Assembly: GCA_039808765.1 (NCBI GenBank) | Contig: JBDHTQ010000004.1 | Coordinates: forward strand, 74,287-138,286 | Source of the DNA: Bdellovibrionales bacterium | GTDB taxonomy: Bacteria > Pseudomonadota > Alphaproteobacteria > UBA2400 | DNA length: 64,000 nt | Reading direction: 5' to 3' | In this document: positions 14,936-49,476 of the stretch, in pieces | Position numbering within the stretch: the first letter of the stretch is position 1 | Layout of the letters: every line of letters starts with the position of its first letter | Program-made: the position numbers and the translations under genes | The notes under the pieces: model-generated | Database searches by the model: none | What the model saw: the letters and a program-made list of their open reading frames with translations, nothing else | Told to the model about the DNA's origin: nothing

Positions 14936-15655
14936 TTATTCAACCATTGCCTGTGAGCCAACGGCAGCTGGTGCTTCTCCGATTGGATCGCGCAAAACGT
15001 AACCGCGGCCCCATACTGTCTCGATATAGCTATCAGTATTGGTGGCTACGGCCAACTTCTTGCGCAACTTGCAAACAAACACGTCGATAATTTTCAATTC
15101 TGGCTCGTCCATTCCGCCATAAAGGTGATTCAAAAACATCTCTTTGGTGAGCGTTGTGCCTTTACGCAGTGAGAGAAGCTCCAGAATGCCATATTCCTTC
15201 CCTGTTAAGTGCAATGGGCGCTCGTCCACCGTAACGGTGCGGGTATCAAGATTGACGGTTAAGCGACCTGTCTTGATTACGCTGTCAGAGTGACCTTTCG
15301 AGCGACGCACAATGGCCTGAATGCGGGCGATAAGTTCGCGCTTGTCAAAAGGTTTGGTCAAATAATCATCGGCGCCAAAGCCTAAGCCCTTGATTTTGTG
15401 ATCTAGTTCTGTGAGGCCCGACAAGATGAGGATCGGTGTGTTCACGCGTGCTGACCGCAAACGACGCAAAACTTCGTAGCCATCAATATCAGGGAGCATC
15501 AGGTCAAGCAAAATGATGTCATAATCATACAGCTTCCCGATTTCCAGTCCATCTTCACCCAGATCTGTCGTGTCGACGATAAATCCCTCTGAATGTAGCA
15601 TTAGCTCAATGCTTTTAGCCGTCGAGCTATCATCTTCAACAAGCAGAACACGCAT
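14936..15655 (-). CDS. ctrA: Cell-cycle response regulator CtrA (OmpR family). The start is trimmed to MRVLLVEDD.
   Basis: Near-identical blocks to Caulobacter/Rhizobiales CtrA: [100 protein letters not shown]. Confidence 0.85.
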
Positions 15656-15864
15656 CTTAACCCCTCCTTGATCTGGGTTACTCTCCCTAACCATTCCGCA
15701 TGCTTTAAAGCAGAGGTCAGGATACATTAACTATCCCTAATATTTCCCAAATTAGTTAACAAAATCTCACCAAGGAAGGCAAGAATAAAATTTTAACCTT
15801 CATTAAAGCGGTTTTGAGCAGATTAAGACTAGGCTAAAAGAATGAATTCGCTTAGCATTCTGTT

Positions 15865-17208
15865 ATGGGAAGTGATCTAGAAACTTTTTTGGCGAACGTT
15901 AATGAAATTCCAGAACAGCAGTTTTTTGGTCGCGTTACGGCGGTTCAGGGATTGATGGTTGAGGTCATTGGGGTCGAAAAACAACTTACGCTGGGTGGTC
16001 GCTGTTATATTGTTAATAGTGAAAACAAGAGAATTCCATGCGAAGTTGTGGGGTTTCGTAAAAAACATGCGCTTTTGATGAGTTACGGGGCTTTGGAGGG
16101 TGTCGGTTTAAATTGCAAAGTTGAGGTATCTTCCAGTCGACCTGCGCTGCATCCAACGGCACTCTGGTTGGGGCGTGTGGTCAATGCATTGGGTGAGCCG
16201 ATTGATGGCAAAGGGCCATTACCGATTGGTGGCATTGCGGCGCCTTTTCGTGCAGCTCCACCGCCCGCCAATTTGCGGCAACGTGTGGCTGGTAAGGTTG
16301 ATTTGGGTGTAAAAGCCCTTAATACCTTTGTCACGCTTTGTCGGGGGCAGCGGATGGGGATTTTTGCGGCCTCAGGTGTTGGCAAATCAGTTTTGATGTC
16401 GATGTTGGCGCGTTATACCAGTTCCGACGTTAATGTCATCGGACTGGTGGGCGAACGTGGCCGCGAAGTGCAGGAGTTTATAAAGGACACATTGGGTGAA
16501 GAGGGGTTAAAACGCTCTATCATTGTGGTGGCAACTTCGGATGAACCTGCGTTGATGCGGCGGCAGGCTGCCTACACCACCCTTGCCCTTGCTGAGTATT
16601 TTCGTGATCAAGGCCAGCATGTGCTGTGCATGATTGATTCGGTTACCCGCTTTGCCATGGCCCAGCGCGAAATTGGCCTTTCAGCGGGTGAGCCACCCAC
16701 AACAAAAGGCTATCCACCGACGGTTTTTAGTGAGCTTCCCAAGCTGTTAGAGCGTGCTGGCCCTGGTGTTGATGGCAACAATGAGGGCGGGGGCGCCATA
16801 ACGGGCCTCTTTACTGTTTTGGTGGAAGGTGACGACCATGACGAACCGATTGCTGACGCCGTTCGCGGTATTCTTGATGGGCATATCGTGTTGGAGCGCT
16901 CGATTGGGGAGCGCGGGCGATACCCTGCGATTAACATTCTTCGCTCTGTTTCCCGCACGATGCCGATGTGCAATACCGATCAAGAAAATGCATTAATTAC
17001 GCGCGCCCGACGGCTTATATCCACCTATGACGATATGGCTGAAATGATCCGGCTAGGTGCGTATCGTATGGGGGCGGATCCGCTGGTTGATGAAGCAATT
17101 GCTTATCGCGAGCCTCTTGAGCGTTTTTTGTCGCAAAAGCCGGGTGAGCATTTTTCATTGGAACAGGGCTACACACAATTGGCTAATGTTCTTCAGCGTC
17201 AAGGCTGA
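15865..17208 (+). CDS. fliI: Flagellum-specific ATP synthase FliI
   Basis: 447 aa T3SS-type ATPase. Walker A GVGKSVLMSMLAR, Walker B LCMIDSVTRFAMAQREI, and the C-terminal helical domain are present. Divergent from ctrA, as in many Rhizobiales. Confidence 0.85.
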   Translation: MGSDLETFLANVNEIPEQQFFGRVTAVQGLMVEVIGVEKQLTLGGRCYIVNSENKRIPCEVVGFRKKHALLMSYGALEGVGLNCKVEVSSSRPALHPTALWLGRVVNALGEPIDGKGPLPIGGIAAPFRAAPPPANLRQRVAGKVDLGVKALNTFVTLCRGQRMGIFAASGVGKSVLMSMLARYTSSDVNVIGLVGERGREVQEFIKDTLGEEGLKRSIIVVATSDEPALMRRQAAYTTLALAEYFRDQGQHVLCMIDSVTRFAMAQREIGLSAGEPPTTKGYPPTVFSELPKLLERAGPGVDGNNEGGGAITGLFTVLVEGDDHDEPIADAVRGILDGHIVLERSIGERGRYPAINILRSVSRTMPMCNTDQENALITRARRLISTYDDMAEMIRLGAYRMGADPLVDEAIAYREPLERFLSQKPGEHFSLEQGYTQLANVLQRQG

Positions 17209-17313
17209 GGAAATAAATTTTAACGCCCTGTCAACTTATTTTGAGGTAAAAGCCAAGATATCCGGCAATGGTTCTTGGCTTATGCGTTGGGGATGCTATG
17301 ATCTGTCAACTGC

Positions 17314-20300
17314 ATGGCGCTTTGGCAAAATGATCAAATAAAGGATTGTGGGCACAAGATGATTCGTTTTTTAAATGACCTTTTTGCTTCGATTTATCTT
17401 GTCTTGCGTCAGCCATTGGAAACATTTATTCGTCTTGAAACGGCGGATGATGAGATAACGCTGGTTGCTGCAGATGGCTCGATGGTGAGCTATATCCGCA
17501 TTGACGGGGCAAAACGCTTAATCGGTGTCAATGAGTTTGAGCATATCGTTGAGCAGGCCAAAATTAAAATCGGCTCGCGTCTTGATCGCCCCGGTTATGC
17601 TCTACAGTTTTATTTTATGCGTGATCCCGCGCGTGTTCGTGGTGAGCTTGAGACCATTATGCGCCCCAATCGTGCGGCCGCAGCAAATCTTGGGCTTGAT
17701 CTGCAGGATTTATTTGAAGAGCGCGCCCGCCATCTTTCCAAGTTCCTGGCATGGGAAGAATGTTATGTTGTGTTGTGGACTCGCCCTGCAGCGTTTGGTG
17801 CTTCGGATTTACGGCGTGAGCTTAAAACACGTTCGGCAATCAAGTGGGTGAATGCACCAGATGCACAATTTCCGTTTGCTGCCCTCGGTGCTTTACGCAC
17901 ACGCCATAAAAGCTTTGTCAGCTCAATTAAAGGTGCTTTCGACGAGCTGGGTATTCGTACGCAAATTTTAGATGTTCACACTGCATTGCGTGCAGTTCGT
18001 TCCAGTTTGTCACCGAGCCATCCTTCCCGTCAGTGGCGCGCATGTTTGCCTGGTGACCCCATCTCCATGCGTGAGCCGCGGTCTCAACGCGACTATTCGG
18101 ATGTTTTATGGCCACCGTTAGCGCGCCAGTTGTTGACCGATGATGCAGAAATTATCAACCAGACACGTGTGCGCATCGGCAACCTTCTCTGGAGCCCGAT
18201 TGATATGACGATGGGGCCAGCTGAAGCGACCGAGTTTCCACGATTGCTGCGGCGGTTGTCTGAATACGATATTCCTTTCCGCATCTCGTGGCTTATCGAA
18301 AGTGCAGGGGCGCAAGGTGCGGGTTTGCGCCGCTTCCTTGTTTCGGTTATCGGATTTACAAAAACCGATAATAAGCTGATTAAGAACTCTCTTGAACATC
18401 TGGATATGATGTCAAAATCAGAGCCGGTGGTTCGTTTGCGTGTTTCTCTGGCCACATGGTGTGGAATCGACCAACCCCAACAACGCCTTGATGAGCAAGC
18501 TTCTGCGCTGATGTCGGCTTTTGAAAGCTGGGGGCAGTGTCAGGTTTCGCAAATTATGGGTGACCCCGTGGAGGGCATTATGTCGTCGGCATTGGGGATT
18601 GCGTGTGCCTCAACGGCCCCTGCTGGTATTGCGCCGCTTGAAGTTGTTTTGCGTCTGCTACCGTGGCAACCTGCTTCTTCGCCGTTTGAGCAGGGCGCGA
18701 TCATGTTCCGTACACCTGAAGGGCGTATCTGGCCCTATCAAACAGGCAGTAGCGTCACGACCACATGGTTTGATCTGATTTTCGCGCAGCCTGGTGCGGG
18801 TAAGTCTGTTTTGCTGAATGCCTTGTCTCTAGGGACGACGCTTACGGCGGGTGTGGCGCGCTTGCCGTATATTGCCATCATTGATATTGGGCCGTCATCG
18901 TCGGGATTGATCTCTCTTATTCGTGACTCGCTTCCCCCCGAGCGTCGCTATGAAGCCGCGCACTATCGTTTACGGATGACGGCGGAGTATGCGATTAATC
19001 CCTTTGATACGCAGTTGGGATGCCGCTATCCTTTGCCGGATGAACGTGCGTATTTGATTGAGCTTTTGACGTTGCTCTGTACGCCACCGGGACAAGAGCA
19101 GCCTTATGACGGTATTACGCAGTTGATTGGGTTTACGCTTGATGAGATGTACCGTTGGCGTGACGATAAACCTGCAGGTGCCGAGCCGCGTGTCTACCTT
19201 CCTTATCTTGATCATGAAGTGGATGAGGCAATCCGTTCGTATAACATTCATCTTCCCAAAGAACCGTATTGGTGGGATGTGGTCGAGCACCTTTTTGAGT
19301 TGGGGCTGATTCACGTTGCGCAATTAGCGCAGCGCCATGCTGTTCCAACCATCACGGATGCGGTAACGGCTTCGCGACGTCCGCAAATCCGCTCCCTTTT
19401 GGAAGAAACAAAGCTAAGCGCCTCTACGGAAAGTATTATTAATGCGTTTGAGCGTATGATTGCTTCGGCTATTCGTGAGTTTCCCATTATCGCCAGCATT
19501 ACCCGCTTTGATATTGGGGGGGCGCGTGTTTGTGCACTCGACTTGATGGAAGTTTCGCCGCAAGGGGATGAATCTGCCGATCGTCAAACTGCTATTCTTT
19601 ACATGTTGGCGCGACATACGTTGGTGCGCAGCTGGTGGTTGGGTGATGATGTGATTCGCCTTATTCCCGAAAAGTACAAATCCTACCATACCAAGCGCCT
19701 TGTTGATATTCGTGAAAGTCCCAAGCGGATTTGTTACGATGAATTCCATCGTACCAGTAAGTCGCATTCTGTGCGCTCGCAGGTGGTGCGCGACGTGCGT
19801 GAAGGTCGTAAATGGGGTGTGCAGATCGTTCTGGCTTCTCAGCTTCTGGAAGACTTCGACGATGCCATGGTTGACTTGGCAACAGGGGTCTGGATTCTCG
19901 GCTCGACGGTTTCTGAAAAAGCCATTGATAAAGCGGTTGATCGGTTCGGTCTATCTGAATCAGCACGTGCCGTTATGAAGGGTAAGTTGACTGGTCCGCG
20001 TGCGGGTGGTGCACCGTGTTTGCTTATTCTCTCCACCAATGATGGACGGTATGAGCAACATTTGATCAACACGCTTGGCCCGATTGAGTTGTGGGCGTTG
20101 TCGACGTCTGCTGAAGACGTGCTGATTCGTAACCGCTTGTACGCACGCCTTGGTGCGCAACGGGCACGCCTGATTTTGGCGTCGAATTATCCAGGCGGTT
20201 CTGCGCGTGCAGAAATTCGCCGTCGCGTGGCGATGGCAACCGAAAAAGGCGAAGTAGATGGTGCAGCAACAGGTGTTGTGATTAATGAGATTGTCGATGA

Positions 20301-20367
20301 GTTAGTTACCCGTTCAATTGCAGAGAGTGCAAAAGATACAGGGCGTACCAAAGCGATCATTATTTAA
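17314..20367 (+). CDS. VirB4-family type IV secretion ATPase, DotO/IcmB/TraU-sized (about 1000 aa). An alternative start is at 17359 (MIRFLND).
   Basis: Walker A FAQPGAGKSVLLN, Walker B-like ICYDEFHRT, and the VirB4/TrbE/CagE signature GRKWGVQIVLASQ (R-K...[AS][TS]Q) are present. The 1017-aa length fits DotO/TraU better than the roughly 800-aa VirB4 of T4A systems. Confidence 0.6.
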   Translation: MALWQNDQIKDCGHKMIRFLNDLFASIYLVLRQPLETFIRLETADDEITLVAADGSMVSYIRIDGAKRLIGVNEFEHIVEQAKIKIGSRLDRPGYALQFYFMRDPARVRGELETIMRPNRAAAANLGLDLQDLFEERARHLSKFLAWEECYVVLWTRPAAFGASDLRRELKTRSAIKWVNAPDAQFPFAALGALRTRHKSFVSSIKGAFDELGIRTQILDVHTALRAVRSSLSPSHPSRQWRACLPGDPISMREPRSQRDYSDVLWPPLARQLLTDDAEIINQTRVRIGNLLWSPIDMTMGPAEATEFPRLLRRLSEYDIPFRISWLIESAGAQGAGLRRFLVSVIGFTKTDNKLIKNSLEHLDMMSKSEPVVRLRVSLATWCGIDQPQQRLDEQASALMSAFESWGQCQVSQIMGDPVEGIMSSALGIACASTAPAGIAPLEVVLRLLPWQPASSPFEQGAIMFRTPEGRIWPYQTGSSVTTTWFDLIFAQPGAGKSVLLNALSLGTTLTAGVARLPYIAIIDIGPSSSGLISLIRDSLPPERRYEAAHYRLRMTAEYAINPFDTQLGCRYPLPDERAYLIELLTLLCTPPGQEQPYDGITQLIGFTLDEMYRWRDDKPAGAEPRVYLPYLDHEVDEAIRSYNIHLPKEPYWWDVVEHLFELGLIHVAQLAQRHAVPTITDAVTASRRPQIRSLLEETKLSASTESIINAFERMIASAIREFPIIASITRFDIGGARVCALDLMEVSPQGDESADRQTAILYMLARHTLVRSWWLGDDVIRLIPEKYKSYHTKRLVDIRESPKRICYDEFHRTSKSHSVRSQVVRDVREGRKWGVQIVLASQLLEDFDDAMVDLATGVWILGSTVSEKAIDKAVDRFGLSESARAVMKGKLTGPRAGGAPCLLILSTNDGRYEQHLINTLGPIELWALSTSAEDVLIRNRLYARLGAQRARLILASNYPGGSARAEIRRRVAMATEKGEVDGAATGVVINEIVDELVTRSIAESAKDTGRTKAIII

Positions 20368-20556: not shown

Positions 20557-22458
20557 TTAAAGTACGCGTTTTTTGTTTTTTTCTGAGGGAATAAGTTCTG
20601 CTGCGGGTAATGGTGACAGCGCTACTTCAGCGGGGTTTAAACGTTGGGCTTCGATCAAGATATCGCGTGCGATAGGGGCCGCAATTTTTGATCCTCCACC
20701 ACCATGTTCAACAATAACGGCAACGGCATAACGTGGTGAGTGAGTGGGGGCATAACCGACGAACAAGGCGTTATCGCGTAAACGCCATTCACGATCTTCG
20801 TTGCGAATGATTCCGCTTGCACGTTCTGCCATAGAAATACGACGCACCTGACTCGTCCCTGTTTTTCCGCCCATCTCTTGACCATTCGTTGTAATCCGTG
20901 CACTGTAGGCAGTGCCGTGTTTGTCGTTACAAACGCTGTTCATTCCCGCAATGATGGCCGACAAATATTCCTCATCAAATCCGAGCGATTTTTCGTTCGT
21001 GAGAGGCGGAGACCTTGTCTGTGTATTGGTGCGCAAGAGTGTTGGCGTTACATCATGGCCGCCATTGACCAAACGTGCGACCATTGCTGCAAGTTGCAGG
21101 GGGGTGGTTTGTAAATCGCCTTGCCCAATGGCAATGTTCAAAGTGTCCCCCCCTTGCCAACGTTCTTTGCGTACCTTTTCTTTCCATTCACGATCGGGGA
21201 CAAGACCTTTCTTCTCGCTGGGCAAGTTAAGCCCTGTTTCTTTGCCCAATCCCAACGTGCGGGCCATATCGGCGATAGGATCAATGCCGATCTTGTTGCC
21301 CAGATCATAGAAATAAACGTCGCAGGACTCGCGCAAGGCACCCACCAGATCAAGTGAGCCATGTCCTCCGTGTTTCCAACAATGAAAAGTATGTCCACCG
21401 AGTTTCATCGCTCCCATGCATGGTACCGTATGTGCAGGAGTAATATGGCCCGTTGAGAGAGCCGCCATTGCTGTTACCATTTTGAATGTTGAGCCGGGGG
21501 AATAAAGACCGGCAATCACTTTATTTGTTAGCGGGGCTGCTTCGTCGTTGCGCAAACTATCCCACAGGGTTTGGGTGATGCCATGGCTAAATGTATTGCT
21601 GTCAAACGTCGGGTGCGATGCAAGAGCATAAATGGCGCCTGTGTGCACATCCATCACGACGCAGGCGGCGCTACGTTCGGTCATCAAACGTTGTTGGGCA
21701 TATTTTTGTAAGTCGATATCCAACGTTAAATTCAGGGTGTTTCCCGGCACACCTTCCTGACGCTGGATTTCTCGAATGACGCGGCCATACGCATTTACTT
21801 CCATATTGGCCGCGCCCACACGACCTCGAAGTGTTTTGTCTTGGGTTTTCTCAATCCCTGACTTGCCGATTTGCAAACCCGATACGCTAAGCAGCGGGTC
21901 GTCATCATCTTCGAGGTCTTTTTTACTAACAGCCCCGACGTAGCCTAAAATATGAGCCGTTGCTTGCGCAAAAGGGTAATAGCGAATTTGGCCTACGTCC
22001 ATGCTGACACCCTCAAGCTCAGGCAACCTGAGCTGCAGTGCTGCGACTTGATCCCACGATAAATTCTCGGCCAAAGTAACGGGATTGAACGGGCGGTTGT
22101 TTTTTATTTCTTGATGGATACGCTTGAGGGCGCTTTCGGAAAAGGGAATAAGTTTTGAAAGATTTGTGAGCGTATTTTCAATTGAAGGTGTTTGCTCGGG
22201 CGTGAGCAATAAGCGAAAATTTTGTTCATTGATCGCCAGTTTTAGTCCCATGCGATCAAGGATCAAACCACGCGGCGGCGCAAGCAAACGTACGCTGATT
22301 CGGTTTTCATCGGCCTGAGTGGTATATTTTACGCTCTGCGTGACCTGCAGGTAATACATGCGTGAAACCAAGCCGCCAAAGAAAGCCGCTTGTAGACCGC
22401 CTAAGAGCAGCGTTCTGCGTGTAAAGAGTCGTTGTCGTTCGCTATCAAAGTCGCGCAT
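20557..22458 (-). CDS. mrdA: Peptidoglycan D,D-transpeptidase PBP2 (MrdA). The start is trimmed to MRDFDSERQ, just after the mreD stop.
   Basis: An N-terminal TM segment and PBP dimerisation domain precede a transpeptidase domain carrying SxxK (STFK), SxN and KTG(T) motifs. It sits downstream of mreBCD. Confidence 0.8.
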   Translation of the reverse strand: MRDFDSERQRLFTRRTLLLGGLQAAFFGGLVSRMYYLQVTQSVKYTTQADENRISVRLLAPPRGLILDRMGLKLAINEQNFRLLLTPEQTPSIENTLTNLSKLIPFSESALKRIHQEIKNNRPFNPVTLAENLSWDQVAALQLRLPELEGVSMDVGQIRYYPFAQATAHILGYVGAVSKKDLEDDDDPLLSVSGLQIGKSGIEKTQDKTLRGRVGAANMEVNAYGRVIREIQRQEGVPGNTLNLTLDIDLQKYAQQRLMTERSAACVVMDVHTGAIYALASHPTFDSNTFSHGITQTLWDSLRNDEAAPLTNKVIAGLYSPGSTFKMVTAMAALSTGHITPAHTVPCMGAMKLGGHTFHCWKHGGHGSLDLVGALRESCDVYFYDLGNKIGIDPIADMARTLGLGKETGLNLPSEKKGLVPDREWKEKVRKERWQGGDTLNIAIGQGDLQTTPLQLAAMVARLVNGGHDVTPTLLRTNTQTRSPPLTNEKSLGFDEEYLSAIIAGMNSVCNDKHGTAYSARITTNGQEMGGKTGTSQVRRISMAERASGIIRNEDREWRLRDNALFVGYAPTHSPRYAVAVIVEHGGGGSKIAAPIARDILIEAQRLNPAEVALSPLPAAELIPSEKNKKRVL

Positions 22459-22460
22459 GG

Positions 22461-22979
22461 TTACAACCCGTCCAAAAATCCGCGTTGCACCCAGTGGAAT
22501 ATCCAAGCGATTGGCGGAAAAAGCGCCAGTCCGGCAACTGTTTGAAACAGGGCGGGCATAAAGGGGATCAACGTTTCATTGATCATGCAGTAAAATCCCC
22601 AGCTTACAACTGCCACCAGTGTAATCAAAATCGCGTAGCCCCACCAGAGCACCAGAAAAGAATGGGCAAGAAAAAGTTGCCGTTGGTGTACCAGTGTGCC
22701 GAAAGCGATTAAAAAAAGCAGGCTGTTGAGGCCCAAGGGGGCTCCGGACAATGTGTCATAGACAAATCCCAAGCTAAAAGCTGAACCAGGTCCAAACAGA
22801 TCGGGACGATAAATGCTCCAATAAAAAACGGCCATTAATCCGATGGATGGCATGATGGCGCCAAAATTGTTTAAGTGCAGTGGCACCATGGTAATGAGAA
22901 CCAGGAAAAGGGCGATAATGAGCGGCGAAAGTGCTCGCGCAGTGCGGTCAATTTTGCTCCACTGATCCCAAACCGTCAT
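22461..22979 (-). CDS. mreD: Rod shape-determining protein MreD
   Basis: Small polytopic membrane protein immediately after mreC. The start is trimmed to MTVWDQ, abutting the mreC stop. Confidence 0.6.
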   Translation of the reverse strand: MTVWDQWSKIDRTARALSPLIIALFLVLITMVPLHLNNFGAIMPSIGLMAVFYWSIYRPDLFGPGSAFSLGFVYDTLSGAPLGLNSLLFLIAFGTLVHQRQLFLAHSFLVLWWGYAILITLVAVVSWGFYCMINETLIPFMPALFQTVAGLALFPPIAWIFHWVQRGFLDGL

Positions 22980-33904: not shown

Positions 33905-34681
33905 TTGCATATGGGGCTGGAGGATCGCATGATTGATAGCGACACAGCGGGTTGGTTTGGTGCATTTTCCGGTGTTCTGATTGGCTTAACGCTCGGCAGT
34001 TTTGTCGGTATGGCCAGTTGGCGATGGCCGTTGGGTAAAAACTTTATTGTCCCCTCTTCGTGTCCTGCGTGTCTGCATCGTCTTACGCTGCGTGAGCTTA
34101 TTCCTGTTTTTAGCTGGGTAATTCAAAGAGGGCGTACACGATGTTGTGATCGCCCGCTTTCGTTGCGCTATCCCGCGGTCGAAGCATTGAACGGTATTTT
34201 GCTCGGTATCGTGGGTTGGAATGCGGGCTTGGGTACAGCGTTTATTTTGCTTGCGATGCTGTTTTGCGCTTTGTCAATTGGTGCATTGATTGATCTTGAA
34301 TGGAAAATTATTCCAGACGGAGTAAATTGCGCGGTGGCAATTTTGGGGGTTTGTTGGGTGGTTTTTCTGGCACCACAAGATTGGGGTTATCGCTTGATCA
34401 ATGTTCTTCAGTGTGGAAGCTTGGGTGTTTTTTTGGCGTATTTTTATTCTAAATGGCGAAAAAAGGATATGCTGGGGTGGGGAGATGTCAAGCTTATGGC
34501 AGCTTCTGGCTTTTGGTTTCCGCCGCAGTGGGTTGGTTTTTACTTGTTTTTTGCGGCGCTACAGGGCATCGGCCTGTCCCTTTACTGGCGACGACGCACG
34601 GGCGAGGCTGAATATCCCTTTGTTCCCCCGCTTGCTGTATCGCTTGCGGTATTAATGATCTGGCAAACATTTGTTGATTAA
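33905..34681 (+). CDS. Prepilin peptidase (A24 family, with an N-terminal zinc-ribbon domain)
   Basis: The N-terminal Cys tetrad is C-P-A-C...C-C (PSSCPACLHRL...RTRCCDRP). A polytopic membrane domain follows, carrying the conserved acidic residues (LIDLEWKIIPDG..., GWGDVKLMAA). Confidence 0.65.
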   Translation: MHMGLEDRMIDSDTAGWFGAFSGVLIGLTLGSFVGMASWRWPLGKNFIVPSSCPACLHRLTLRELIPVFSWVIQRGRTRCCDRPLSLRYPAVEALNGILLGIVGWNAGLGTAFILLAMLFCALSIGALIDLEWKIIPDGVNCAVAILGVCWVVFLAPQDWGYRLINVLQCGSLGVFLAYFYSKWRKKDMLGWGDVKLMAASGFWFPPQWVGFYLFFAALQGIGLSLYWRRRTGEAEYPFVPPLAVSLAVLMIWQTFVD

Positions 34682-34735: not shown

Positions 34736-35464
34736 ATGAGTTCAAAAAGCGTGTCACCTCCCGTTAGTTTGGTCAAAAAATCAGACCATTTGGTCCTCCC
34801 TCCGAAAGCGGAAGAGCGCCATTCCACAGTAGATGGACTGGCGCTTGTCATGGCGCGCAATAATTTTTATGTTTTTCACTATCACAAAATTTTGTACATC
34901 GTTTTGGCTCAATTGGCTGGAATTATCATTTTGGTAATGATTTTGTTTCGGTTATTTGAATTTACCGATTCGCGGGATTATTTTTTTCCTGTTCAGCAAG
35001 ACAGCACATTGATCATCGAACGGCCTCTTTATGAGTCCGTTTATAGTGACGACGAAATGCGTCGGTGGGTGGAAGAGGCGACCACCACCACACTCACCTT
35101 TGGTTATTACGATTATCAGATGCGCTGGCAAGATTCGCGCGGTTATTTTACGCCCCAGGGATGGGCCAGCTACAATCGTGCGATGGAAAATGTTTTAAAC
35201 TACATTGGTGTTGGCATAGAAAACTCTGCCAAGAAAGTCATTCTGACCCGTGTTCATCCAGGCAAAGGGGCAGAAATCAAACGGCAGGGAATTTCTAATG
35301 GGGTTTATACGTGGGATTTTACGATCAGTTTGGATGTGACATATTTTGGTACAAGTGAACAAAGTCGGGAGACGTGGAACGTCGACCTTAGAATTGTGCG
35401 CATGCCTTCTAATATCAGTCGCTATGGTCGAGGGATCAAGTGGTTAGTTGCGTTGAAGGAATGA
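34736..35464 (+). CDS. Bitopic VirB8/DotI(IcmL)-like T4SS inner-membrane component, paralogue 1
   Basis: Short cytoplasmic N-terminus, one TM segment (IVLAQLAGIIILVMILF), then a periplasmic domain of about 170 aa. The family-level pattern (FGYYDY...R..FTPQGW...) is shared with the three downstream paralogues. Confidence 0.4.
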   Translation: MSSKSVSPPVSLVKKSDHLVLPPKAEERHSTVDGLALVMARNNFYVFHYHKILYIVLAQLAGIIILVMILFRLFEFTDSRDYFFPVQQDSTLIIERPLYESVYSDDEMRRWVEEATTTTLTFGYYDYQMRWQDSRGYFTPQGWASYNRAMENVLNYIGVGIENSAKKVILTRVHPGKGAEIKRQGISNGVYTWDFTISLDVTYFGTSEQSRETWNVDLRIVRMPSNISRYGRGIKWLVALKE

Positions 35465-35467
35465 TCT

Positions 35468-36205
35468 ATGGCGTTTAAGCTTTTCTCCTCTTCCTCTTCT
35501 TCTGCCGTGCGTAAAGACAGCGAGGTTTTTGCCAAGCCTTCCGATATGCTGATGTCTGTGCAGAGTCAGCAGGATTTTTATTCCATCAGCTATCGTTTTC
35601 TGGTTAAGACCTCACTCTTCTTGGGAACAATCGTTATTGTTTTGATTGTACTCTGTTGTGGAATTGTTATTTTTTCGGCGCCGCATGATCGTTTTTTTAC
35701 CGCATCAGTAGATGGGCGGGTTGAGCGCGTGGTGCCCCTCAATATCGCAACCGCACCGACGGCTGAGATGGCGCAAAAAGTGCGAGATCACATTTCACGT
35801 GCGCTTAATTTTGGTTATCTTGACTATGAGCAACGTCGCGCCGAAAATTTATCGCCCTTTACAGCTTCTGCGTTCGAGAAGCTACAGGATCAGACATTGT
35901 TGCCGTTTGGTTTGCGCGACATGCTCAAAAAGATGCTCGTTTTTAAGACGTCACCGTTAAAATCTCCGGGTGTGTCATTGGTTGCCAATAATGTAGATCA
36001 AAACTTTACCATGCAATGGATTTTCGACGTTCCCGTTAAAATTGAGGTGAGTTCGGATGATCCAAGCGTGAAAGATGCTAATCGACAAGATATCGTCGTG
36101 ATTCGTGTTCTTGTGAAGCGTTCGGCTGATATTGACACGCCTGGCGGGTACATCATCTGGGACATTCAGGGGATAAAAATTATTAATCATGGAGGGGCAT
36201 CATGA
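35468..36205 (+). CDS. VirB8/DotI(IcmL)-like bitopic protein, paralogue 2
   Basis: Same architecture (TM segment LFLGTIVIVLIVLCCGIVIF) and a shared motif (LNFGYLDYEQRRAENLSPFTASAF). Confidence 0.4.
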   Translation: MAFKLFSSSSSSAVRKDSEVFAKPSDMLMSVQSQQDFYSISYRFLVKTSLFLGTIVIVLIVLCCGIVIFSAPHDRFFTASVDGRVERVVPLNIATAPTAEMAQKVRDHISRALNFGYLDYEQRRAENLSPFTASAFEKLQDQTLLPFGLRDMLKKMLVFKTSPLKSPGVSLVANNVDQNFTMQWIFDVPVKIEVSSDDPSVKDANRQDIVVIRVLVKRSADIDTPGGYIIWDIQGIKIINHGGAS

Positions 36206-36978
36206 CTGATTTGAGCTCTTCTGCCAAAAAGCCTGCGGATGTCCAAAAGAAAGCATCAGCAAATGCTACGGTAGCGAAAAAGAATTCGGCCCGTACAGCC
36301 GCCGGCAAAAAAGGGACTCAAAAGCCCGCGTCGAAAAGTGGGCTGAAAAAGTTTGTGTTGCGTTTGAAGGAAGCGCTTTACAGCCAAACACTGCAACCTG
36401 CTGATGTCTCGATGCGGCAGACTTTTTTGGCAACCATCGGGGTTGTGATTTTGATTGCGGGTATTTTTGCTTTTGTTTTTGGCAATAAGCGCGCTGATTT
36501 GCTTTTTGCCAGCCATAGCGGAAAGCTAACGCCCATTCAGTATGTTGACACACCAAGTATTAGTAATGAGGCTGTGATCAACTGGGCCATGGCCGCATTT
36601 ATGGATATCAAAAACTTTAATTTTAACAACATTGATGAACGATTTAATAGCGCATATCGTTATTTTACGCCTGAGGGATGGGACTCTTTCGTGGCCGCAC
36701 TCTACAAGAGTGGTATCATTGACGCCATCAAAACCAATAAACAGTACGTGAGCGCTGTTCCAGGAGGGGCACCAATTATGCAGTCCGAAACAGATGATCC
36801 GGGACATTATTCATGGGTTGTACAAATTCCGTATCAAATGACCACGGTTTGGCGTGATAGTAATGGTACCAATCGGGAAAAAACAGATAGTAAAGTCGCG
36901 ACGATTACGGTGGAGAGTATTCCCACAAACACCTCACTGGCGGGTTACCCCTTCGGGATATCAAGGATAAACGAATAA
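36202..36978 (+). CDS. VirB8/DotI(IcmL)-like bitopic protein, paralogue 3
   Basis: Same architecture (TM segment ATIGVVILIAGIFAFVF) and motif (YRYFTPEGWDSF). It overlaps the upstream gene by 4 nt. Confidence 0.4.
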   Translation: MTDLSSSAKKPADVQKKASANATVAKKNSARTAAGKKGTQKPASKSGLKKFVLRLKEALYSQTLQPADVSMRQTFLATIGVVILIAGIFAFVFGNKRADLLFASHSGKLTPIQYVDTPSISNEAVINWAMAAFMDIKNFNFNNIDERFNSAYRYFTPEGWDSFVAALYKSGIIDAIKTNKQYVSAVPGGAPIMQSETDDPGHYSWVVQIPYQMTTVWRDSNGTNREKTDSKVATITVESIPTNTSLAGYPFGISRINE

Positions 36979-37652
36979 TGACTTTTTCAGGAAAACCCGT
37001 GAGCTTGGTTAAAAAAACCGATATTCAGCGTAATCGGCAATCTTATTTCCGGCTAAACAATAATTTCTTGCGTGATCGTGCGCGTTTTATGGTGGTTCTA
37101 AAGTTTCAGCAATATTTGACTGTGATTCTGCTCTGCATTCTCTTTGGCCTGCTTTTTGGGGTTGTCAGTACCAATTATCGGGTTTTTGCGACAAGTAATA
37201 ATGGAACGCTCGTCCCTAACACGCCGATCGATCAGGAAGTACAGGAAAGCGTGTTGATGACATGGGTTGTAACAACGGTTCTGGAAGCTTCAACGATTGG
37301 ATTTTTCGATTATGAGCTAAGGTTTCAGCAGCTTCGAAGTGCATTTACCGATCAGGGATGGGAATCCTACAACCGCTTTTTACGAACAAGTTTTAATAAA
37401 AAAACCTCTATTCGTGCAGAATTGGAAAATGGCCATATTTTGCTGCAACCCAAAATTTCAACCCCGCCACAAATTTTGCGACGTGGGCTGGTGGGGGGGG
37501 TTATGACGTATCATCTTCAGCTTGAGATTGTTATTCGCGGCGTGTGGAGCGAAGATATGCGAATCCCCAAAATACTGGATTTGATTGTTGAAAGGGTGAC
37601 ACCGGAAATAAATTCAGATGGTTTGGCGATCTCACAGTGGAGAATCTCTTAA
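36978..37652 (+). CDS. VirB8/DotI(IcmL)-like bitopic protein, paralogue 4
   Basis: Same architecture (TM segment LTVILLCILFGLLFGVV) and motif (GFFDYELRFQQLRSAFTDQGWESY). Its start overlaps the upstream stop. Confidence 0.4.
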   Translation: MTFSGKPVSLVKKTDIQRNRQSYFRLNNNFLRDRARFMVVLKFQQYLTVILLCILFGLLFGVVSTNYRVFATSNNGTLVPNTPIDQEVQESVLMTWVVTTVLEASTIGFFDYELRFQQLRSAFTDQGWESYNRFLRTSFNKKTSIRAELENGHILLQPKISTPPQILRRGLVGGVMTYHLQLEIVIRGVWSEDMRIPKILDLIVERVTPEINSDGLAISQWRIS

Positions 37653-37778: not shown

Positions 37779-38786
37779 GTGTGTTGTGGAGTGCTTGAGA
37801 TGTTTCAGAAACGGTTTTTTCTCCTTTTGCTTATGGTTGTTGCGCTAGCGAGCAGCGTGGCTCAGCCTGTTTGGGCGTCTTCGAATATGGGGCGAGGGTC
37901 GTCGAGCCAAGGCGGAGATGTTGGTTTGGAAGGTTTTGTTGAGCCACCACAAATCAGTCAGGAAGAAATTCTTAGAAAAGCCAAACAGATGGCGTTTGAT
38001 AACGCTCTGGATGGAGCAATGCCCCTCTCGCCTGAGCAGATTGCGGCTATTATTCAAAAAATGTCAATCGTGCAGGAAGCTGCTGCGCCAGCCATAGCAA
38101 ATCCCGTGCGCCCTAAGCCAGTCCTAAAGGTTGAAACAATTTCGCTTGACCCTGGTACTCAGCCCCCTGTCATCAAGGTGGCTGCGGGCTATGTGACGTC
38201 GGTTATGATTCTTGATGCCACCGGGGCGCCGTGGGAGATTAAAGATATTGCGTATGTTGGCAAATTTAACGCGGCCATTCCCAACAGTGCGCCGCATACG
38301 TTTCGAATTTTGCCCCTTAATCGCTTTTATGAGGGCAACTTGACGCTGCAGTTGGTGGGGCTTGCAACACCTGTTACCTTCCGTCTTGAGGCCGGTGAAG
38401 ATGAGGTTTATTACCGTTATGATGTGCGGTTACCTGTTATTGGTCCCAACGCTAAGGCCCCGCAATTTAAGTCTGCAAACAGCATGGTGGCCGGCGATTC
38501 TGTTATGATGGCGGTTTTGAGCGGTTATCCTCCCGCTTCGTCAAAGCGGTTGCAGGTCTCTGGGCTTGATGATCGTTCGGCGGCTTGGGAGATTAATGGT
38601 CAAATTTTCTTGCGCACACCCCACACCTTGCTTTCGCCTGCGTGGTCTGGCAGCACGACATCGGGGGATGGTACCACAGTTTATGCAATTCCCGATACGC
38701 CTGTGCTGCTTCTGTCAGATCAGGGGGTTATGGTTCGTGCACGCTTAAGTCGCCCTAAAGGTATTGTTGAGGGAGAAGCTCAATGA
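37779..38786 (+). CDS. Secreted VirB9/DotH(IcmK)/TraN-like T4SS outer-membrane-complex protein
   Basis: Sec signal (LLLLMVVALASSVAQPVWA) followed by a beta-rich sequence (VIKVAAGYVTSVMILD..., LTLQLVGLATPVTFRLEAG). Its position between the VirB8-like and VirB10-like genes matches the conserved B8-B9-B10 / dotI-dotH-dotG order. Confidence 0.4.
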   Translation: MCCGVLEMFQKRFFLLLLMVVALASSVAQPVWASSNMGRGSSSQGGDVGLEGFVEPPQISQEEILRKAKQMAFDNALDGAMPLSPEQIAAIIQKMSIVQEAAAPAIANPVRPKPVLKVETISLDPGTQPPVIKVAAGYVTSVMILDATGAPWEIKDIAYVGKFNAAIPNSAPHTFRILPLNRFYEGNLTLQLVGLATPVTFRLEAGEDEVYYRYDVRLPVIGPNAKAPQFKSANSMVAGDSVMMAVLSGYPPASSKRLQVSGLDDRSAAWEINGQIFLRTPHTLLSPAWSGSTTSGDGTTVYAIPDTPVLLLSDQGVMVRARLSRPKGIVEGEAQ

Positions 38787-40120
38787 GTAATACATCCGAT
38801 TTTAATGAAACACCCGGTAATTCTCGTTACCGTCGCCCGAACAAGGCGAGCAGTCTTTCTCAGATGTGGCAAAATCCAATCGTCAAGCTTGTTATCGTTT
38901 TGATGGTTTTGGGTGGGGCTGCTCTGGCTGGAATGAAGTTCCTATCGGGGGGGCGTGATGAACAGGAAACAGTTTTGGCAACGCCTGGTTCTGGCGGTGG
39001 TGCTGCAAAAGTAGGTAACCAAATAACACCCGAGTATCAGTTGGCTGTTCAGCAAAGTGATATTCGTAACGCTGCAGAAGCGCGTGCAACGGGTGATACT
39101 GCTGTGCCAACACCTTTGCAGACTGCTGTATCATCACCAGAAGTTGACACTGACATGAATGCCGCTCAAGGGGAGGATCCCATTCGTCAGTTTGAAGCCA
39201 TTTTGCAGAAGGATGGACAGGGAAAGAAGAGTAATTTGCCTCCTCCACAAACAACGCAGCCGGCTGTTCAGGTTCCGCCTGAAGTTTTAAAGCAGCTTAC
39301 GGAAGCGATGGCTAATCAGATTGGTGCGATGATGAAGACGTGGACACCTCCCACAATGTCTCAGGTTACATCGAACATCAAGGAAGAGGACATTTTGATG
39401 CGCAATACGCCGAAGGAAATTTCGGTCGACAGTTTGAAGCCTCTGACCGAGTCTAAACCGGTTGTGACTGCGGGTAGTGTTTATTATGGGCAGATGATTA
39501 TTGAAGCCAATTCTGACATTCCGGGCCCGATTATGGCGCAAATTCTCACTGGACCTTTGGCCGGAGGGCGTGCAATCGGTCAGTTTCAAACGTTTCGCAA
39601 CCATCTTTTGATTCGCTTTGATACGGTTTCACTTGGCACAAATCAGATGAGCGTGGATATTATCGCCCTTGATCCCAATACTACTCTTGGTGGGATTGCG
39701 AGCGAGGTTGACCCGCGTTACTTCCAACGTGTTTTGCTGCCTGCTGCTGCTGCGTTTATTTCTGAATATGGTCAAGCGCTTTCAGAGCCGACCAGCACGG
39801 TAAGTGTTTCAGGGACGGATGGTACCAACATCTCTACTTCGACCAATGAGCGCGATGCAAAAGATGCGATGTATGCTGGTATTGGTGCTGCATCAGAGAA
39901 GATCGAGCAATTCGTGACAGAAGAAGCATCGTCAATTAAGCGCCTTGTTCGCGTTGGCGTGGGCACGCCAATCGGCATGTTTTTTGTGAAGCCTGTTTGC
40001 GGCTTTAGCGGGCAGTGTAATGCGGGGTCAGCGGTAACGCCTGCTTCTTCGCCTTCCCCTTCCCCCGTATCTGTGAGTGGTGTTGTTTCTCCGACATCGA
40101 CATCTTATATTCAACGTTGA
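38783..40120 (+). CDS. VirB10/TrbI/DotG-family T4SS protein
   Basis: N-terminal TM segment (IVKLVIVLMVLGGAALAGM), then a Pro/Gln-rich linker. The C-terminal domain aligns block-by-block to VirB10/TrbI: AGSVYYGQMIIEANSDIPGPIMAQI, GGRAIGQF, LIRFDTVSLGTNQMSVDIIALDPNTTLGGIASEVDPRYFQRVLLPAAAAFIS. Confidence 0.65.
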   Translation: MSNTSDFNETPGNSRYRRPNKASSLSQMWQNPIVKLVIVLMVLGGAALAGMKFLSGGRDEQETVLATPGSGGGAAKVGNQITPEYQLAVQQSDIRNAAEARATGDTAVPTPLQTAVSSPEVDTDMNAAQGEDPIRQFEAILQKDGQGKKSNLPPPQTTQPAVQVPPEVLKQLTEAMANQIGAMMKTWTPPTMSQVTSNIKEEDILMRNTPKEISVDSLKPLTESKPVVTAGSVYYGQMIIEANSDIPGPIMAQILTGPLAGGRAIGQFQTFRNHLLIRFDTVSLGTNQMSVDIIALDPNTTLGGIASEVDPRYFQRVLLPAAAAFISEYGQALSEPTSTVSVSGTDGTNISTSTNERDAKDAMYAGIGAASEKIEQFVTEEASSIKRLVRVGVGTPIGMFFVKPVCGFSGQCNAGSAVTPASSPSPSPVSVSGVVSPTSTSYIQR

Positions 40121-40130
40121 GGTTTTAGTG

Positions 40131-42086
40131 ATGAGAGCTTTTGGTAAACGCGGCGGATCAAATAATCAAAACGACGAGGGATTTGAGGACGAAAACCTTC
40201 CCCCGGAAGATTATTATCAAGAGGAATTTTCTGCTTCTACGCTCGATTCTGAACAAGGCGATGATGACTGGGATTCTTTGTCTGATAATGAAGATTCTGT
40301 CCTCTCTCAAGCTGAGGAAATGAAACATCGTTCCTCGCCCATTGCGCGCATGATTCCTTGGTTTGCCTTGGGTGTGATTGTCGCGGGGGGAATTGTTTAC
40401 TACTTGACGGCCAATATGGGTTCCGGTGTGATTCAGCCGGGAAGTGCTATAACTGCTACCCCTGTTGCCCCGTCAACCAATACTACAGATGAACAATTTG
40501 CCAAACCTATGACATCGCGCGCAACGCCCAGCAGCACAAGTGGTGGGGCAGCGTCAACATCTTCTGGTTCTCCCGAGACGTCAGCATCAGTGTCCATGCC
40601 GGCCTTGCCATCGGATACTGCTTCTGCAAGTGCTCAAACCACCCGATCCGGCTCGTTTATCCCCTCTGACGACGGCACAATTAAATGGGTAGAGCCTGTT
40701 CAATCTCCTGACCAGACGGCCAATAAGGGCAATGTTACGGAGACAGGGACAGCGACGTCTGCATCTACAACAGCTACTGCTGCCACTAACACACCCAGTT
40801 CGGTAACAGAGCAAACTGAGACATCACAACCGCAAACAACGCCGATCATTGGATCACAAGAAACAGTGGAAACCCCGGTTACCACACCGCCTGATTTTTC
40901 TAAGCAGATGGCTTCTATTAATTCCTCATCTGTGACGGATAAACCGGTCACGCCAAACTCACAAAATTCTTCAGCTGCGCAGGAAACTGTCCCATTAAAA
41001 GAACAAACCACGCCGACCGCACCTGCGACACCTAAAAATATTTCGACGGCCAATGACCAACATGCTTCTGAAACAGCTGTTGCCGTGACGCCCTCGACGT
41101 CATCTTCTGACGCCGCGACAAACGAGCGTTCGCCTGAGTCGCTCTTGATGAGTGCGATGAAGTCAACAGCAGATCAGGCAAAAATCCCGCCTGTCGAGAC
41201 GCCTGCAATGACGGCAACAACCGCTCCCACGACGGCCCTTCCAGCAGCGGCTATTCCAACAACGGCAAATGTTAAACCGACGGGCGCTTCTTCTGTACCA
41301 TCTTCATCAGAAGCACCGATACCCAGTGCTGTCACGTCGTCGGGGGAGGCTTCGTCTGCTACATCGGCTCCCTCGCCGTCAGGATTAACGTCAACCTTGG
41401 TTCCGACGTTAGCACCAACAACATCGGTTACAGCACCTGTTTCATCTCAGGGGCTGGGCGTAAGTTCTTCCATTTCGTCGTCCGTCGATGCAACAAAAAC
41501 ACCATCAGCTTCAACTGAAGATGTTGATGATCTCAATTCACGCATGGCTGTGCTTGAGCAGCGATTAGGTGACCTGACGCAGGCATTGGATAAAGTTGCT
41601 GTGCAGAGTACCTCAAAATCATCGGCTACCTCTGAACAAAACACTCAAGCGATGGCTCAGGCTGGTGCATTAAACACTCAGCTTTCTGCACAAATTAAAT
41701 CGCTGCAAAGTGAAATGCAGTCTCTTAAGTCGCAGGTAAAAGATCAAAGCCGGGCGGCCGTGCCGTCATCTGTCACAACATCACCTGTTGTAACATCGGT
41801 TGAAAATAAACAGCCACCCAAAACAATTCCGCTTTTGCCATCCAAGCCCCAGACGGAATCACACAAAGTGGCAACTGCATCGTCCCCTGCTCAAGCCAAT
41901 TCTGCTAAAGCGTGGGAACTGCGTGCGGCGCAGGCTGGCGAGGCTTGGGTAGCGCGTAAAGGCTCAGACAATTTGCAGCATGTCACGGTCGGTCAGTCCG
42001 TGAGTGGTTTGGGTCGCGTGACCAGTATTCGTGAGAAAAATGGGGCATGGGTTGTCGTGACAACAGGCGGTACGCTGCGTCAGTAA
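40131..42086 (+). CDS. Ser/Thr/Ala/Pro-rich bitopic protein with a C-terminal coiled coil and a small beta domain, possibly the DotF/IcmG/TraP analogue
   Basis: TM segment (IPWFALGVIVAGGIVYYL) followed by about 380 aa of S/T/A/P-rich low complexity. A coiled coil (LEQRLGDLTQALDK...LQSEMQSLKSQVKD) and a compact C-terminal domain follow. The gene sits immediately after the VirB10-like gene, as dotF follows dotG. Confidence 0.3.
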   Translation: MRAFGKRGGSNNQNDEGFEDENLPPEDYYQEEFSASTLDSEQGDDDWDSLSDNEDSVLSQAEEMKHRSSPIARMIPWFALGVIVAGGIVYYLTANMGSGVIQPGSAITATPVAPSTNTTDEQFAKPMTSRATPSSTSGGAASTSSGSPETSASVSMPALPSDTASASAQTTRSGSFIPSDDGTIKWVEPVQSPDQTANKGNVTETGTATSASTTATAATNTPSSVTEQTETSQPQTTPIIGSQETVETPVTTPPDFSKQMASINSSSVTDKPVTPNSQNSSAAQETVPLKEQTTPTAPATPKNISTANDQHASETAVAVTPSTSSSDAATNERSPESLLMSAMKSTADQAKIPPVETPAMTATTAPTTALPAAAIPTTANVKPTGASSVPSSSEAPIPSAVTSSGEASSATSAPSPSGLTSTLVPTLAPTTSVTAPVSSQGLGVSSSISSSVDATKTPSASTEDVDDLNSRMAVLEQRLGDLTQALDKVAVQSTSKSSATSEQNTQAMAQAGALNTQLSAQIKSLQSEMQSLKSQVKDQSRAAVPSSVTTSPVVTSVENKQPPKTIPLLPSKPQTESHKVATASSPAQANSAKAWELRAAQAGEAWVARKGSDNLQHVTVGQSVSGLGRVTSIREKNGAWVVVTTGGTLRQ

Positions 42087-43216: not shown

Positions 43217-44191
43217 GTGCCTATGGATTGCACTAAAAAAGATTTTTTCGCTTCAAAATCAAATGGATGCCTAACGTTCAGTGTGGCTCTAATCAGCGTG
43301 CTGTTCTTTGCTTTTCCTGCATTCGCTGATGAAGATTTGGGCGCAAGCATTCTTAGTGTCGTTAATTCGGGTTACAGTAATGTTCCAATTATTCTGACGT
43401 ATTTCTCTTACATTGCGGGGCTTATGCTTGGTCTGATCGGTTTAAATAAAATAAAAACCCATTTCGTTGGTGGGAATCAGCCTCTTTCTGGTGGATTGTG
43501 GCATCTGGTTGGCGCATCGCTGCTAATTTCTTTGCCCACAGCATGGGGCATGATTGTTCGTTCTCTCAAAACGGGTTCTGTATCGGGTTCCACGCGGGCT
43601 GTGGCCGATTTAAGTGGGGCAGGTGGGGGCACAGGGAGCTTATCGCTTGACCAAATGATGATCGACTTGGTAACCAATATCCAAGCACCGATGGGCTACC
43701 TTTTGTGGAGCTTGAGTGCAGTATTGGGACTATTCTTCCTAACCACCTCATTTTTGCGAATGGCCAAAAACTCTGGTCAGGATGGACCGCGTAACTCACT
43801 GGGTGCGGGAACACTCAGCCGAGTAGTTATCGGCGGGTTACTTCTTTCATTCTCGGCGACGGCAGACATTGTAACGACCACCCTGTTTGGTACCAATGTT
43901 CTTAAATTTTCATCAATGGATCTGAGCGGTTCGGTAGATGCGAATGCGTTAGACCATATTAATGCGACCATTTCGGCTGTGTTGGTTTTCGTTCAGATTC
44001 TTGGGTTCATTGCTTTTATGCGTGGTTTTTTGATGCTTCGTGCCCAGTTTGACGGTGGTAACGGAAGTACAGCGGCTGCTTTTACCCATATTATTGGTGG
44101 AGCGGTGGCGTTTAATATTTCCTCATTTATGGGGATTATGGAAAAAACGTTCTGTGCAACCGCTGGGTGTAGCGTCTTTGAATTTAACTGA
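43217..44191 (+). CDS. Polytopic membrane protein with a signal peptide, last gene of the T4SS-like operon
   Basis: 324 aa. A signal-like N-terminus (FSVALISVLFFAFPAFADE) is followed by about 6 TM helices and Gly-rich loops. A strong terminator follows. Confidence 0.3.
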   Translation: MPMDCTKKDFFASKSNGCLTFSVALISVLFFAFPAFADEDLGASILSVVNSGYSNVPIILTYFSYIAGLMLGLIGLNKIKTHFVGGNQPLSGGLWHLVGASLLISLPTAWGMIVRSLKTGSVSGSTRAVADLSGAGGGTGSLSLDQMMIDLVTNIQAPMGYLLWSLSAVLGLFFLTTSFLRMAKNSGQDGPRNSLGAGTLSRVVIGGLLLSFSATADIVTTTLFGTNVLKFSSMDLSGSVDANALDHINATISAVLVFVQILGFIAFMRGFLMLRAQFDGGNGSTAAAFTHIIGGAVAFNISSFMGIMEKTFCATAGCSVFEFN

Positions 44192-49417: not shown

Positions 49418-49476
49418 TTGGCACCTCACTCTACAGGCAATTCTAGCATCTGGCAAACGGGTTTTGCAAGCAGAAA

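Follow-up and report, generated by a model that had tools for sequence, protein, structure and literature searches.

The closest described relatives of the gene treated here belong to type IVB secretion systems (T4BSSs) of the Dot/Icm kind and to the transfer systems of IncI plasmids. The Dot/Icm ATPase of Legionella, DotO (IcmB), is soluble and membrane associated, and is a very distant homologue of VirB4 (14% identity, E value of 0.009); in L. pneumophila its Walker A lysine, K495, is essential for ATPase activity, and one DotI together with a short DotJ serve as its membrane receptors (PMC11474061). The T4BSS of Pseudomonas putida IsoF, in the outline given by one report, kills bacteria (PMC9519443). 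Here we describe an icmB/dotO-type gene at positions 17314-20367 of the forward strand of a 64,000-nucleotide stretch, referred to below as the window, from a Bdellovibrionales bacterium assigned by GTDB to the Alphaproteobacteria (UBA2400; assembly GCA_039808765.1, contig JBDHTQ010000004.1, positions 74,287 to 138,286). Judged by its homology, motifs, and fold, by synteny, and by the partner genes present in the window, the gene very probably encodes the VirB4-class ATPase of a chromosomal Dot/Icm-like T4BSS. The host is a Micavibrio-like alphaproteobacterium, in which a rearrangement has brought the gene alongside the flagellar gene fliI.

Micavibrio-type bacteria are epibiotic predators of other bacteria. 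A Dot/Icm-like system in this group has received passing mention only in the literature we found: Needham et al. (2022) counted pT4SSi-type systems in seven marine Micavibrionales genomes, giving the counts without gene order or function (PMC9418006). The genome paper on M. aeruginosavorus ARL-13 from 2011 reported no type III or type IV system (PMC3189940), and our full-text literature search found no study of a Micavibrio T4BSS.

RESULTS

Reading frame, start codon, and catalytic motifs

The open reading frame (ORF) at 17314-20367 runs without interruption over 1017 codons counted from the first ATG, and the ORF listing and the translation bear out the intact frame of that length which the original prediction, made by a model from the sequence alone, had proposed. 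The start codon is most likely the second ATG, at 17359 (M16), which would give a product of 1002 instead of 1017 residues. This start is favored because a database protein identical to the product (P0001), the gene call on a second contig of the same species (L001, described below), and the homologues all begin at M16 or its equivalent; the homologues are all 985 to 1006 residues long, and their N terminus is common from that point onward. Residues of the product are therefore numbered from M16. The distance to fliI had been given as 105 bp, which is correct between the fliI end at 17208 and the first ATG; with the likely start at 17359, however, it becomes 150 bp. The antisense ORFs within icmB, all of 120 residues or fewer, are shadow ORFs, since in the relatives they are conserved less than the sense frame. 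The gene and its motifs are the following:

17359..20367, forward strand: putative icmB/dotO coding sequence, T4B VirB4-class ATPase of 1002 residues (longest ORF from 17314; homologues back 17359)
18784..18807, forward strand: Walker A motif AQPGAGKS, residues 476-483, including K482 (motif and alignment of 36 homologues)
19738..19842, forward strand: Walker B-type DEFH and GRKWG...LASQ (residues 816-828), in register with the DEF...RK...ATQ of TrwK

All the motifs named in the original prediction (Walker A, a Walker B-like DEFH, and GRKWG...LASQ) are present, with DEFH at residues 794-797 (nucleotides 19738-19749), GRKWG at 816-820, and LASQ at 825-828. In an alignment of 36 homologues sharing 59 to 85% identity, the key residues were invariant (G479, G481, K482, S483, D794, E795, F796, H797, G816, R817, K818, S827, and Q828). 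K482 is the equivalent of K495 of L. pneumophila DotO. The product showed no transmembrane segment, there being no window of 19 residues with a mean Kyte-Doolittle hydropathy above 1.6.

Placement in the DotO/IcmB/TraU branch of VirB4 ATPases

We then determined the relationship of the product to known families. Among 8,000 candidate proteins scored, 1,279 matched at an E value of 1e-3 or lower; the top 120 were all 60 to 100% identical to the query, and the named ones among them appear as "type IV secretion protein IcmB" at NCBI and as "intracellular multiplication protein IcmB" at JGI. An exhaustive HMMER scan over 1.84 billion representatives of clusters formed at 50% identity yielded 1,439 clusters, 720 of them at an E value of 1e-30 or lower, and the representatives were mostly about 1000 residues long among the 150 listed of the 1,439. 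Of ten distant representatives looked up, almost none carried a name. A tblastn search of 72,556 plasmids matched 3,784 records, 3,703 with a query coverage of at least 80%. Judging by 30 rows sampled across the ranking of the 3,784, these matches are mostly TraU or IncI/IncL-M-type transfer genes; on plasmid TraU genes of the IncI and IncL/M types the alignment spanned 93 to 96% of the product.

The direct comparisons separated the two branches of the family. Against IncI1 TraU (1014 residues), BLASTP gave a collinear alignment of residues 44-985 with 28% identity over 970 residues (E value of 8e-108), while against the T4A VirB4 of R388 (TrwK, 823 residues) it found nothing significant (best E value of 0.34). 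The original prediction had argued from length for T4B (IcmB/DotO, TraU) and not T4A, and these two alignments agree with it. A profile of 32 diverse family members did align with TrwK in hhalign (residues 452-946 against 406-807), weakly (E value of 2.4e-4, probability of 44%), with Walker A, Walker B, and the RK..(S/T)Q motif all in register. When the AlphaFold model of the product was compared with the PDB by Foldseek, the 14 best matches were all R388 TrwK/VirB4 (E values from 3e-12 to 1e-9), and the next match had an E value of 0.24. At the level of the modeled fold, then, the product is predicted to be a VirB4-class ATPase, and its sequence places it in the T4B (MPF-I; DotO/IcmB/TraU) branch. 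Membership in the VirB4/TrbE/CagE family, as first proposed from the motifs, is consistent with both the motifs and the Foldseek matches; no family outside type IV secretion systems (T4SSs) gave a significant match, and BLASTP did not place the product with T4A.

Partner genes in the window

Other T4B components co-occur with icmB in the window, all at 34.7 to 44.2 kb. The distance of about 14 kb to them had been noted correctly, the nearest starting at 34736, 14.4 kb downstream of icmB. The genes in that region are as follows:

33905..34681, forward strand: A24 prepilin peptidase, directly 5' of the IcmL paralogues
34736..37652, forward strand: four tandem DotI/IcmL paralogues of 224 to 258 residues (PF11393, four times)
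37779..38786, forward strand: DotH/IcmK (PF12293, E value of 6e-66)
38783..40120, forward strand: TrbI-domain protein in the DotG/IcmE position
40077..42086, forward strand: 669-residue protein in the DotF/IcmG/TraP position, without a family match and similar to its counterpart at locus L003 at the C terminus only
43217..44191, forward strand: IcmC/DotE-like protein, C-terminal half matching the NCBIfam model conj_TraQ_IncI1 (E value of 3e-12, below the family cutoff), with a weak match to DUF6750

The cluster breaks directly after the IcmC/DotE-like gene, where metK follows. The 669-residue protein also had a subthreshold match to the NCBIfam model "CpoB-like predatory vesicle lipoprotein Bd0635" (E value of 1e-3, 18.8 bits against a cutoff of 250), which is probably a coiled-coil artifact.

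Several results weigh against the reading of icmB as a Dot/Icm-type ATPase. The Pfam scan of the product gave no match even at E values of up to 10, VirB4-type models included, and the NCBIfam scan gave matches at chance level only (a TraC-F-type model at an E value of 0.096, with 10.5 bits against a cutoff of 567, and HerA at 0.29). Searches of the PDB sequences with phmmer and with a 36-sequence profile returned nothing beyond chance-level matches to HerA (E value of 1.6) and eL30. The AlphaFold model has a pLDDT of 62.9, with a good N-terminal domain and an ATPase core below 50. The link to the DotO of Legionella and Coxiella runs through the "IcmB" names that NCBI and JGI give to the homologues and not through a direct sequence comparison. 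Finally, a profile search of the 64-kb window found no IcmJ, the conserved partner, and DotB, DotL/M, DotA, DotC/D, and IcmT are not in the window either. Since the curated models and the PDB sequence searches gave no placement, the family assignment rests on the TraU homology, the source annotations of the homologues, and the fold. The model search proposed with the original prediction thus had a mixed outcome: no non-T4SS family was significant, but no curated VirB4/TraC model of Pfam or NCBIfam matched.

Some of these results could also be read as marking an orphan left by a decaying T4BSS or a P-loop nucleoside triphosphatase of the HerA/FtsK type, such as a defense ATPase: icmB stands apart from its universal partner icmJ, and the weak family matches are to TraC (0.096) and HerA (0.29 and 1.6) only. 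Against this, the ORF is full length, with all catalytic motifs intact and invariant, and the product is 100% identical in two assemblies and 86% identical to that of the next species. The remaining T4BSS genes in the window are intact too, the TraU homology extends over the whole length and thus beyond the P-loop, and the fold favors VirB4 over HerA (Foldseek E values of 3e-12 and 6.5, respectively). We regard a remnant or an unrelated ATPase as extremely improbable.

An origin from a conjugative element deserves slightly more weight, though still very little. Under this explanation, icmB would be the TraU ATPase of an IncI-like element (an integrative and conjugative element or an integrated plasmid) that moves DNA, instead of part of an effector-translocating Dot/Icm system. 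The best annotated homologues of the product are indeed conjugative TraU proteins, the IncI1 TraQ model finds one match among the window genes, and type IVb pilus genes resembling those of the IncI thin pilus adjoin icmJ-icmB in relatives. The T4BSS genes of the window, however, are scattered among the housekeeping genes fliI, mrdA, mreBCD, recO, clpA, metK, and folD; the window ORFs scanned yielded neither a relaxase nor a coupling protein nor an integrase, and no flanking repeat was seen; and the 60 to 86% identity over many Micavibrionales-like genomes fits vertical inheritance. In addition, MacSyFinder assigned the systems of the seven marine Micavibrionales to the relaxase-less pT4SSi type (PMC9418006). 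A conjugative element is thus a very unlikely source of the gene, and the chromosomal Dot/Icm-like T4BSS is the reading that we follow below.

Gene order in relatives

The closest loci in species-representative genomes came from two "Micavibrio sp." metagenome-assembled genomes (MAGs) (79% and 61% identity), an "uncultured Pseudobdellovibrionaceae" MAG (82%), and an alphaproteobacterial MAG (60%). NCBI taxonomy files Micavibrio within Pseudobdellovibrionaceae. Loci that bear a homologue are designated by L-numbers; L003 and L004 share about 60% identity with the icmB product, and the closer relatives share 79 to 86%. At L003 and L004 the order is a DotF-like gene, a TraQ-like/DUF6750 gene, small DUF6750 genes (three at L003), a gene of about 235 residues, and icmB, which is the order of icmG-C-D-J-B in Legionella and of traP-Q-R-S-T-U in IncI plasmids.

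An icmJ/dotN-type gene of about 232 residues lies directly 5' of icmB in all the relatives examined (L003, L004, L005, L008/L009, L010/L011, and L012). Its copies are 40 to 69% identical to one another, show weak similarity to IncI TraT, and carry the name IcmJ at JGI. Among relatives, five distinct arrangements (seven loci) have the gene in this place. In the closer relatives, the icmJ-icmB pair already lies outside the main cluster and at differing sites: it adjoins IncI-like type IVb pilus genes at L005, and apparently at L002, judged there by matching ORF sizes only; it follows motAB at L010; and at L008 it is flanked by genes for a two-component system on one side and a solute-binding protein on the other, within a few kilobases of fliJ and flhA. 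A general linkage of icmJ-icmB to flagellar genes was considered and rejected, as it holds at L008 and L010 and not at L002 through L005.

The pilus genes beside icmJ-icmB (L005, 9033-14963; L010, 1-6613) comprise PilS twice, T2SSF, T2SSE, a secretin, PilO, and TcpQ. On a Bosea megaplasmid, an A24 peptidase gene (L007, 10272-11144) lies 3 kb from an IcmB homologue of 43% identity. The occurrence of an A24 peptidase and type IVb pilus genes next to T4B genes suggests a T4BSS combined with a type IVb pilus module, as in IncI plasmids.

The fliI-icmB junction

The window departs from this order, in that fliI and not icmJ precedes icmB; the icmJ position is a feature of synteny and does not define the family. 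A search with the IcmJ of the nearest relative found no recognizable icmJ of the host species, the best candidate (P0276) lying in a normal icmJ-icmB pair of another organism. No FliJ was found by tblastn over the six frames of the window. The immediate neighbors, ctrA and fliI on one side and the mre/mrdA block on the other, were annotated as the original prediction had named them:

14936-15727, reverse strand: CtrA-like response regulator of the OmpR family, divergent from fliI, a pairing kept in relatives
15865-17208, forward strand: fliI, flagellar export ATPase (PF00006, E value of 1e-86, and T3SS_ATPase_C)
17209..17358, forward strand: fliI-icmB intergenic region of 150 bp (consensus matches only)
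20557-22506, reverse strand: mrdA (penicillin-binding protein 2), convergent with icmB and followed by mreD, mreC, and mreB; it opens the mreBCD-mrdA block

At L016 and L017 the divergent ctrA-like/fliI pair is kept, with fliJ 6 to 33 nucleotides after fliI and without icmB. In the nearest relative genome (GCA_054403615.1), fliI is followed by a phosphatase-family gene and alr, and icmJ-icmB lies on another contig than fliI, about 6 kb from an inverted fliJ. Thus fliI and fliJ are also apart in that genome, where the inverted fliJ adjoins a resistance-nodulation-division pump gene. The DNA similarity of the window to its relatives stops inside fliI, and rearrangement breaks seem to recur in the clade at the point just 3' of fliI.

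The junction itself is reproduced, at 98 to 100% identity, on a 3.7-kb contig of the same species (L001, GCA_039808745.1). A one-off assembly error is therefore unlikely, with the proviso that both assemblies may derive from common source data. The adjacency of fliI and icmB is real but confined to one species: the location that had been called unusual is found in a second assembly, but it is specific to the species, and the relatives are arranged otherwise. The simplest course of events would be that an ancestral icmG-C-D-J-B string was broken just 5' of icmB, that a ctrA/fliI-fliJ string was broken just 3' of fliI, and that the two broken ends, fliI and icmB, were joined in the host species.

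Spacer and transcription

Within the spacer, positions 17275-17302 hold one sigma-70-like site (TTGGCT-16-TATGAT, with TG upstream) that would imply a 5' untranslated region of about 50 nucleotides, and icmB may well be driven by its own promoter there, with some read-through from fliI possible. Sigma-70-like sites in the spacer are, however, no commoner than in shuffled sequence, and the same is true of the terminator calls near fliI, which are likewise consensus matches. There is no canonical terminator after fliI, and a 9-bp hairpin over the fliI stop codon (17189-17212; dG of -14.5 kcal/mol, z of -2.1) lacks a U tract. The spacer contains no perfect CtrA box, only an imperfect TTAA-N7-TCAA at 17221-17235.

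These features bear on a possible capture of icmB by the fliI transcription unit, in line with the co-transcription that the original prediction had thought possible. Both genes would then be read from a CtrA-dependent or flagellar promoter, and cells would produce the secretion motor along with the flagellar export apparatus, for instance during a motile attack phase. The two genes are codirectional and 150 bp apart, the hairpin at the fliI stop codon has no U tract, and icmB occupies the place that fliJ holds in relatives, from which it follows that the ancestral fliI transcript ran past the junction; flagellar genes are likewise close to icmJ-icmB in two other relatives (motAB at L010, and fliJ and flhA within a few kilobases at L008). 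We nevertheless consider such a capture unlikely. The adjacency is restricted to one species, icmJ-icmB lies by type IVb pilus genes at L005 and L002 and inside the T4BSS cluster at L003 and L004, with no flagellar genes in the flanks fetched, and the spacer has a promoter-like site with an extended -10 element and no perfect CtrA box.

Four perfect CtrA-type boxes (TTAA-N7-TTAA) are present elsewhere in the window, at 32689-32703, 13541-13555, 7707-7721, and 26626-26640. Three of the four are intergenic on the promoter side, and one lies 63 nucleotides 5' of the ORF at 32766-33899, the head of the A24-peptidase/IcmL string. Their number is not clearly above chance (4 observed against 1.65 expected, with 8 of 100 shuffles reaching 4).

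Surroundings and other parts of the window

The surroundings of icmB are ordinary core chromosome. The GC content around the gene is 0.50 to 0.52, the same as in the mre/mrdA block, and the core genes of the window include flgF/G-type rod genes, fliL, fliM, cheY, a cheZ-like gene, the ctrA-like gene, fliI, mrdA, and mreBCD, as well as recO, clpA, clpS, metK, folD, and tRNA-Ala. No direct or inverted repeats flank icmB beyond short chance matches, and a transposition signature at the gene was accordingly rejected.

A run of reverse-strand genes at 48293-53910 encodes an ATP-grasp enzyme, an S-adenosylmethionine (SAM) methyltransferase, an 803-residue fusion of a P-loop kinase-like domain with radical SAM/SPASM and DUF3419, as well as a B12-binding radical SAM enzyme; the run may represent a small cluster for biosynthesis or modification. 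Between 58678 and 64000 the GC content drops to 0.39 to 0.42, and six successive ORFs have no Pfam match (58678-60132, 60147-60776, 60937-61629, 61747-62475, 62604-62834, and 63271 to the end). This region may be horizontally acquired or fast evolving. A tRNA-Ala(CGC) gene at 47914-47989 on the forward strand lies within a 134-residue ORF on the reverse strand (47831-48235) that has no family match and is probably spurious. The stretch that separates the ctrA-like gene from an EamA transporter gene holds three further ORFs, which matched no Pfam or NCBIfam family (12302-13414, reverse strand; 13558-14076 and 14139-14726, forward strand).

DISCUSSION

A protein that was missed by Pfam and NCBIfam can now be placed in the DotO/TraU branch of the VirB4 ATPases. 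Its odd neighborhood is best read as a recent rearrangement, and we found no evidence that flagellar and type IV secretion modules have been functionally fused, nor any sign of a new kind of system behind it. The gene is a further member of the known DotO/IcmB family, and the rearrangement is a local curiosity. Of wider interest is the conserved, chromosomally scattered Dot/Icm-like system that is widespread in Micavibrio-like alphaproteobacteria.

A DotO-type mechanism can be proposed because of the homology with Legionella DotO (PMC11474061). By analogy, the soluble protein would dock through its N-terminal domain on the cytoplasmic tails of DotI/DotJ-type (IcmL) proteins and IcmT, the four IcmL paralogues of the window supplying the DotI/DotJ-type partners. 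Its C-terminal RecA-like domain would mediate assembly into a hexamer of dimers below the inner-membrane complex, DotB would be recruited by the DotO-like ATPase, and ATP hydrolysis at the K482 site would assemble and power the secretion channel.

What role such a conserved machine plays, toward bacterial prey or toward eukaryotic hosts, is the broader question in a lineage known for predation. One could imagine that the Micavibrio T4BSS and the IncI-like type IVb pilus genes together make up a prey-directed injection device, comparable to the bacteria-killing T4BSS of P. putida IsoF, with production of its motor tied in the host species, by the fliI/ctrA adjacency, to a flagellated, cell-cycle-controlled attack phase; we rate this combined scenario as improbable, and as less probable than the capture of icmB by the fliI transcription unit.

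Comparison with known systems

The product resembles the IcmB/DotO of Legionella and Coxiella in its length of about 1000 residues, its predicted solubility without a transmembrane segment, and the Walker A lysine in the middle of the protein (K482 and K495). The DotI/IcmL, DotH/IcmK, DotG/IcmE, and IcmC components of Dot/Icm systems co-occur with it, the kinship with VirB4 is similarly distant, and the icmG-C-D-J-B order of Legionella is kept in the deeper relatives of the host. Unlike in Legionella and Coxiella, the host is not a member of the Legionellales but an alphaproteobacterium of the Micavibrio group; icmB has lost its place beside icmJ and adjoins fliI instead, and there are four IcmL paralogues where Legionella has DotI and DotJ.

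The likeness to IncI1 TraU (R64/ColIb-P9 type, MPF-I) is collinear over the full length at 28% identity (1014 and 1002 residues), and the traP-Q-R-S-T-U order mirrors that of L003 and L004. TraU, however, is plasmid borne and works with a relaxase in DNA transfer, whereas icmB is located on the chromosome among core genes, with no relaxase among the window ORFs scanned. With the VirB4/TrwK of R388, the product shares its predicted fold (Foldseek E value of 3e-12) and C-terminal ATPase motifs in register; it differs in the lack of significant pairwise similarity and in being about 180 residues longer. The pT4SSi systems of the marine Micavibrionales come from the same order and belong to the same secretion class, one defined by an IcmB/VirB4 homologue together with accessory genes (PMC9418006).

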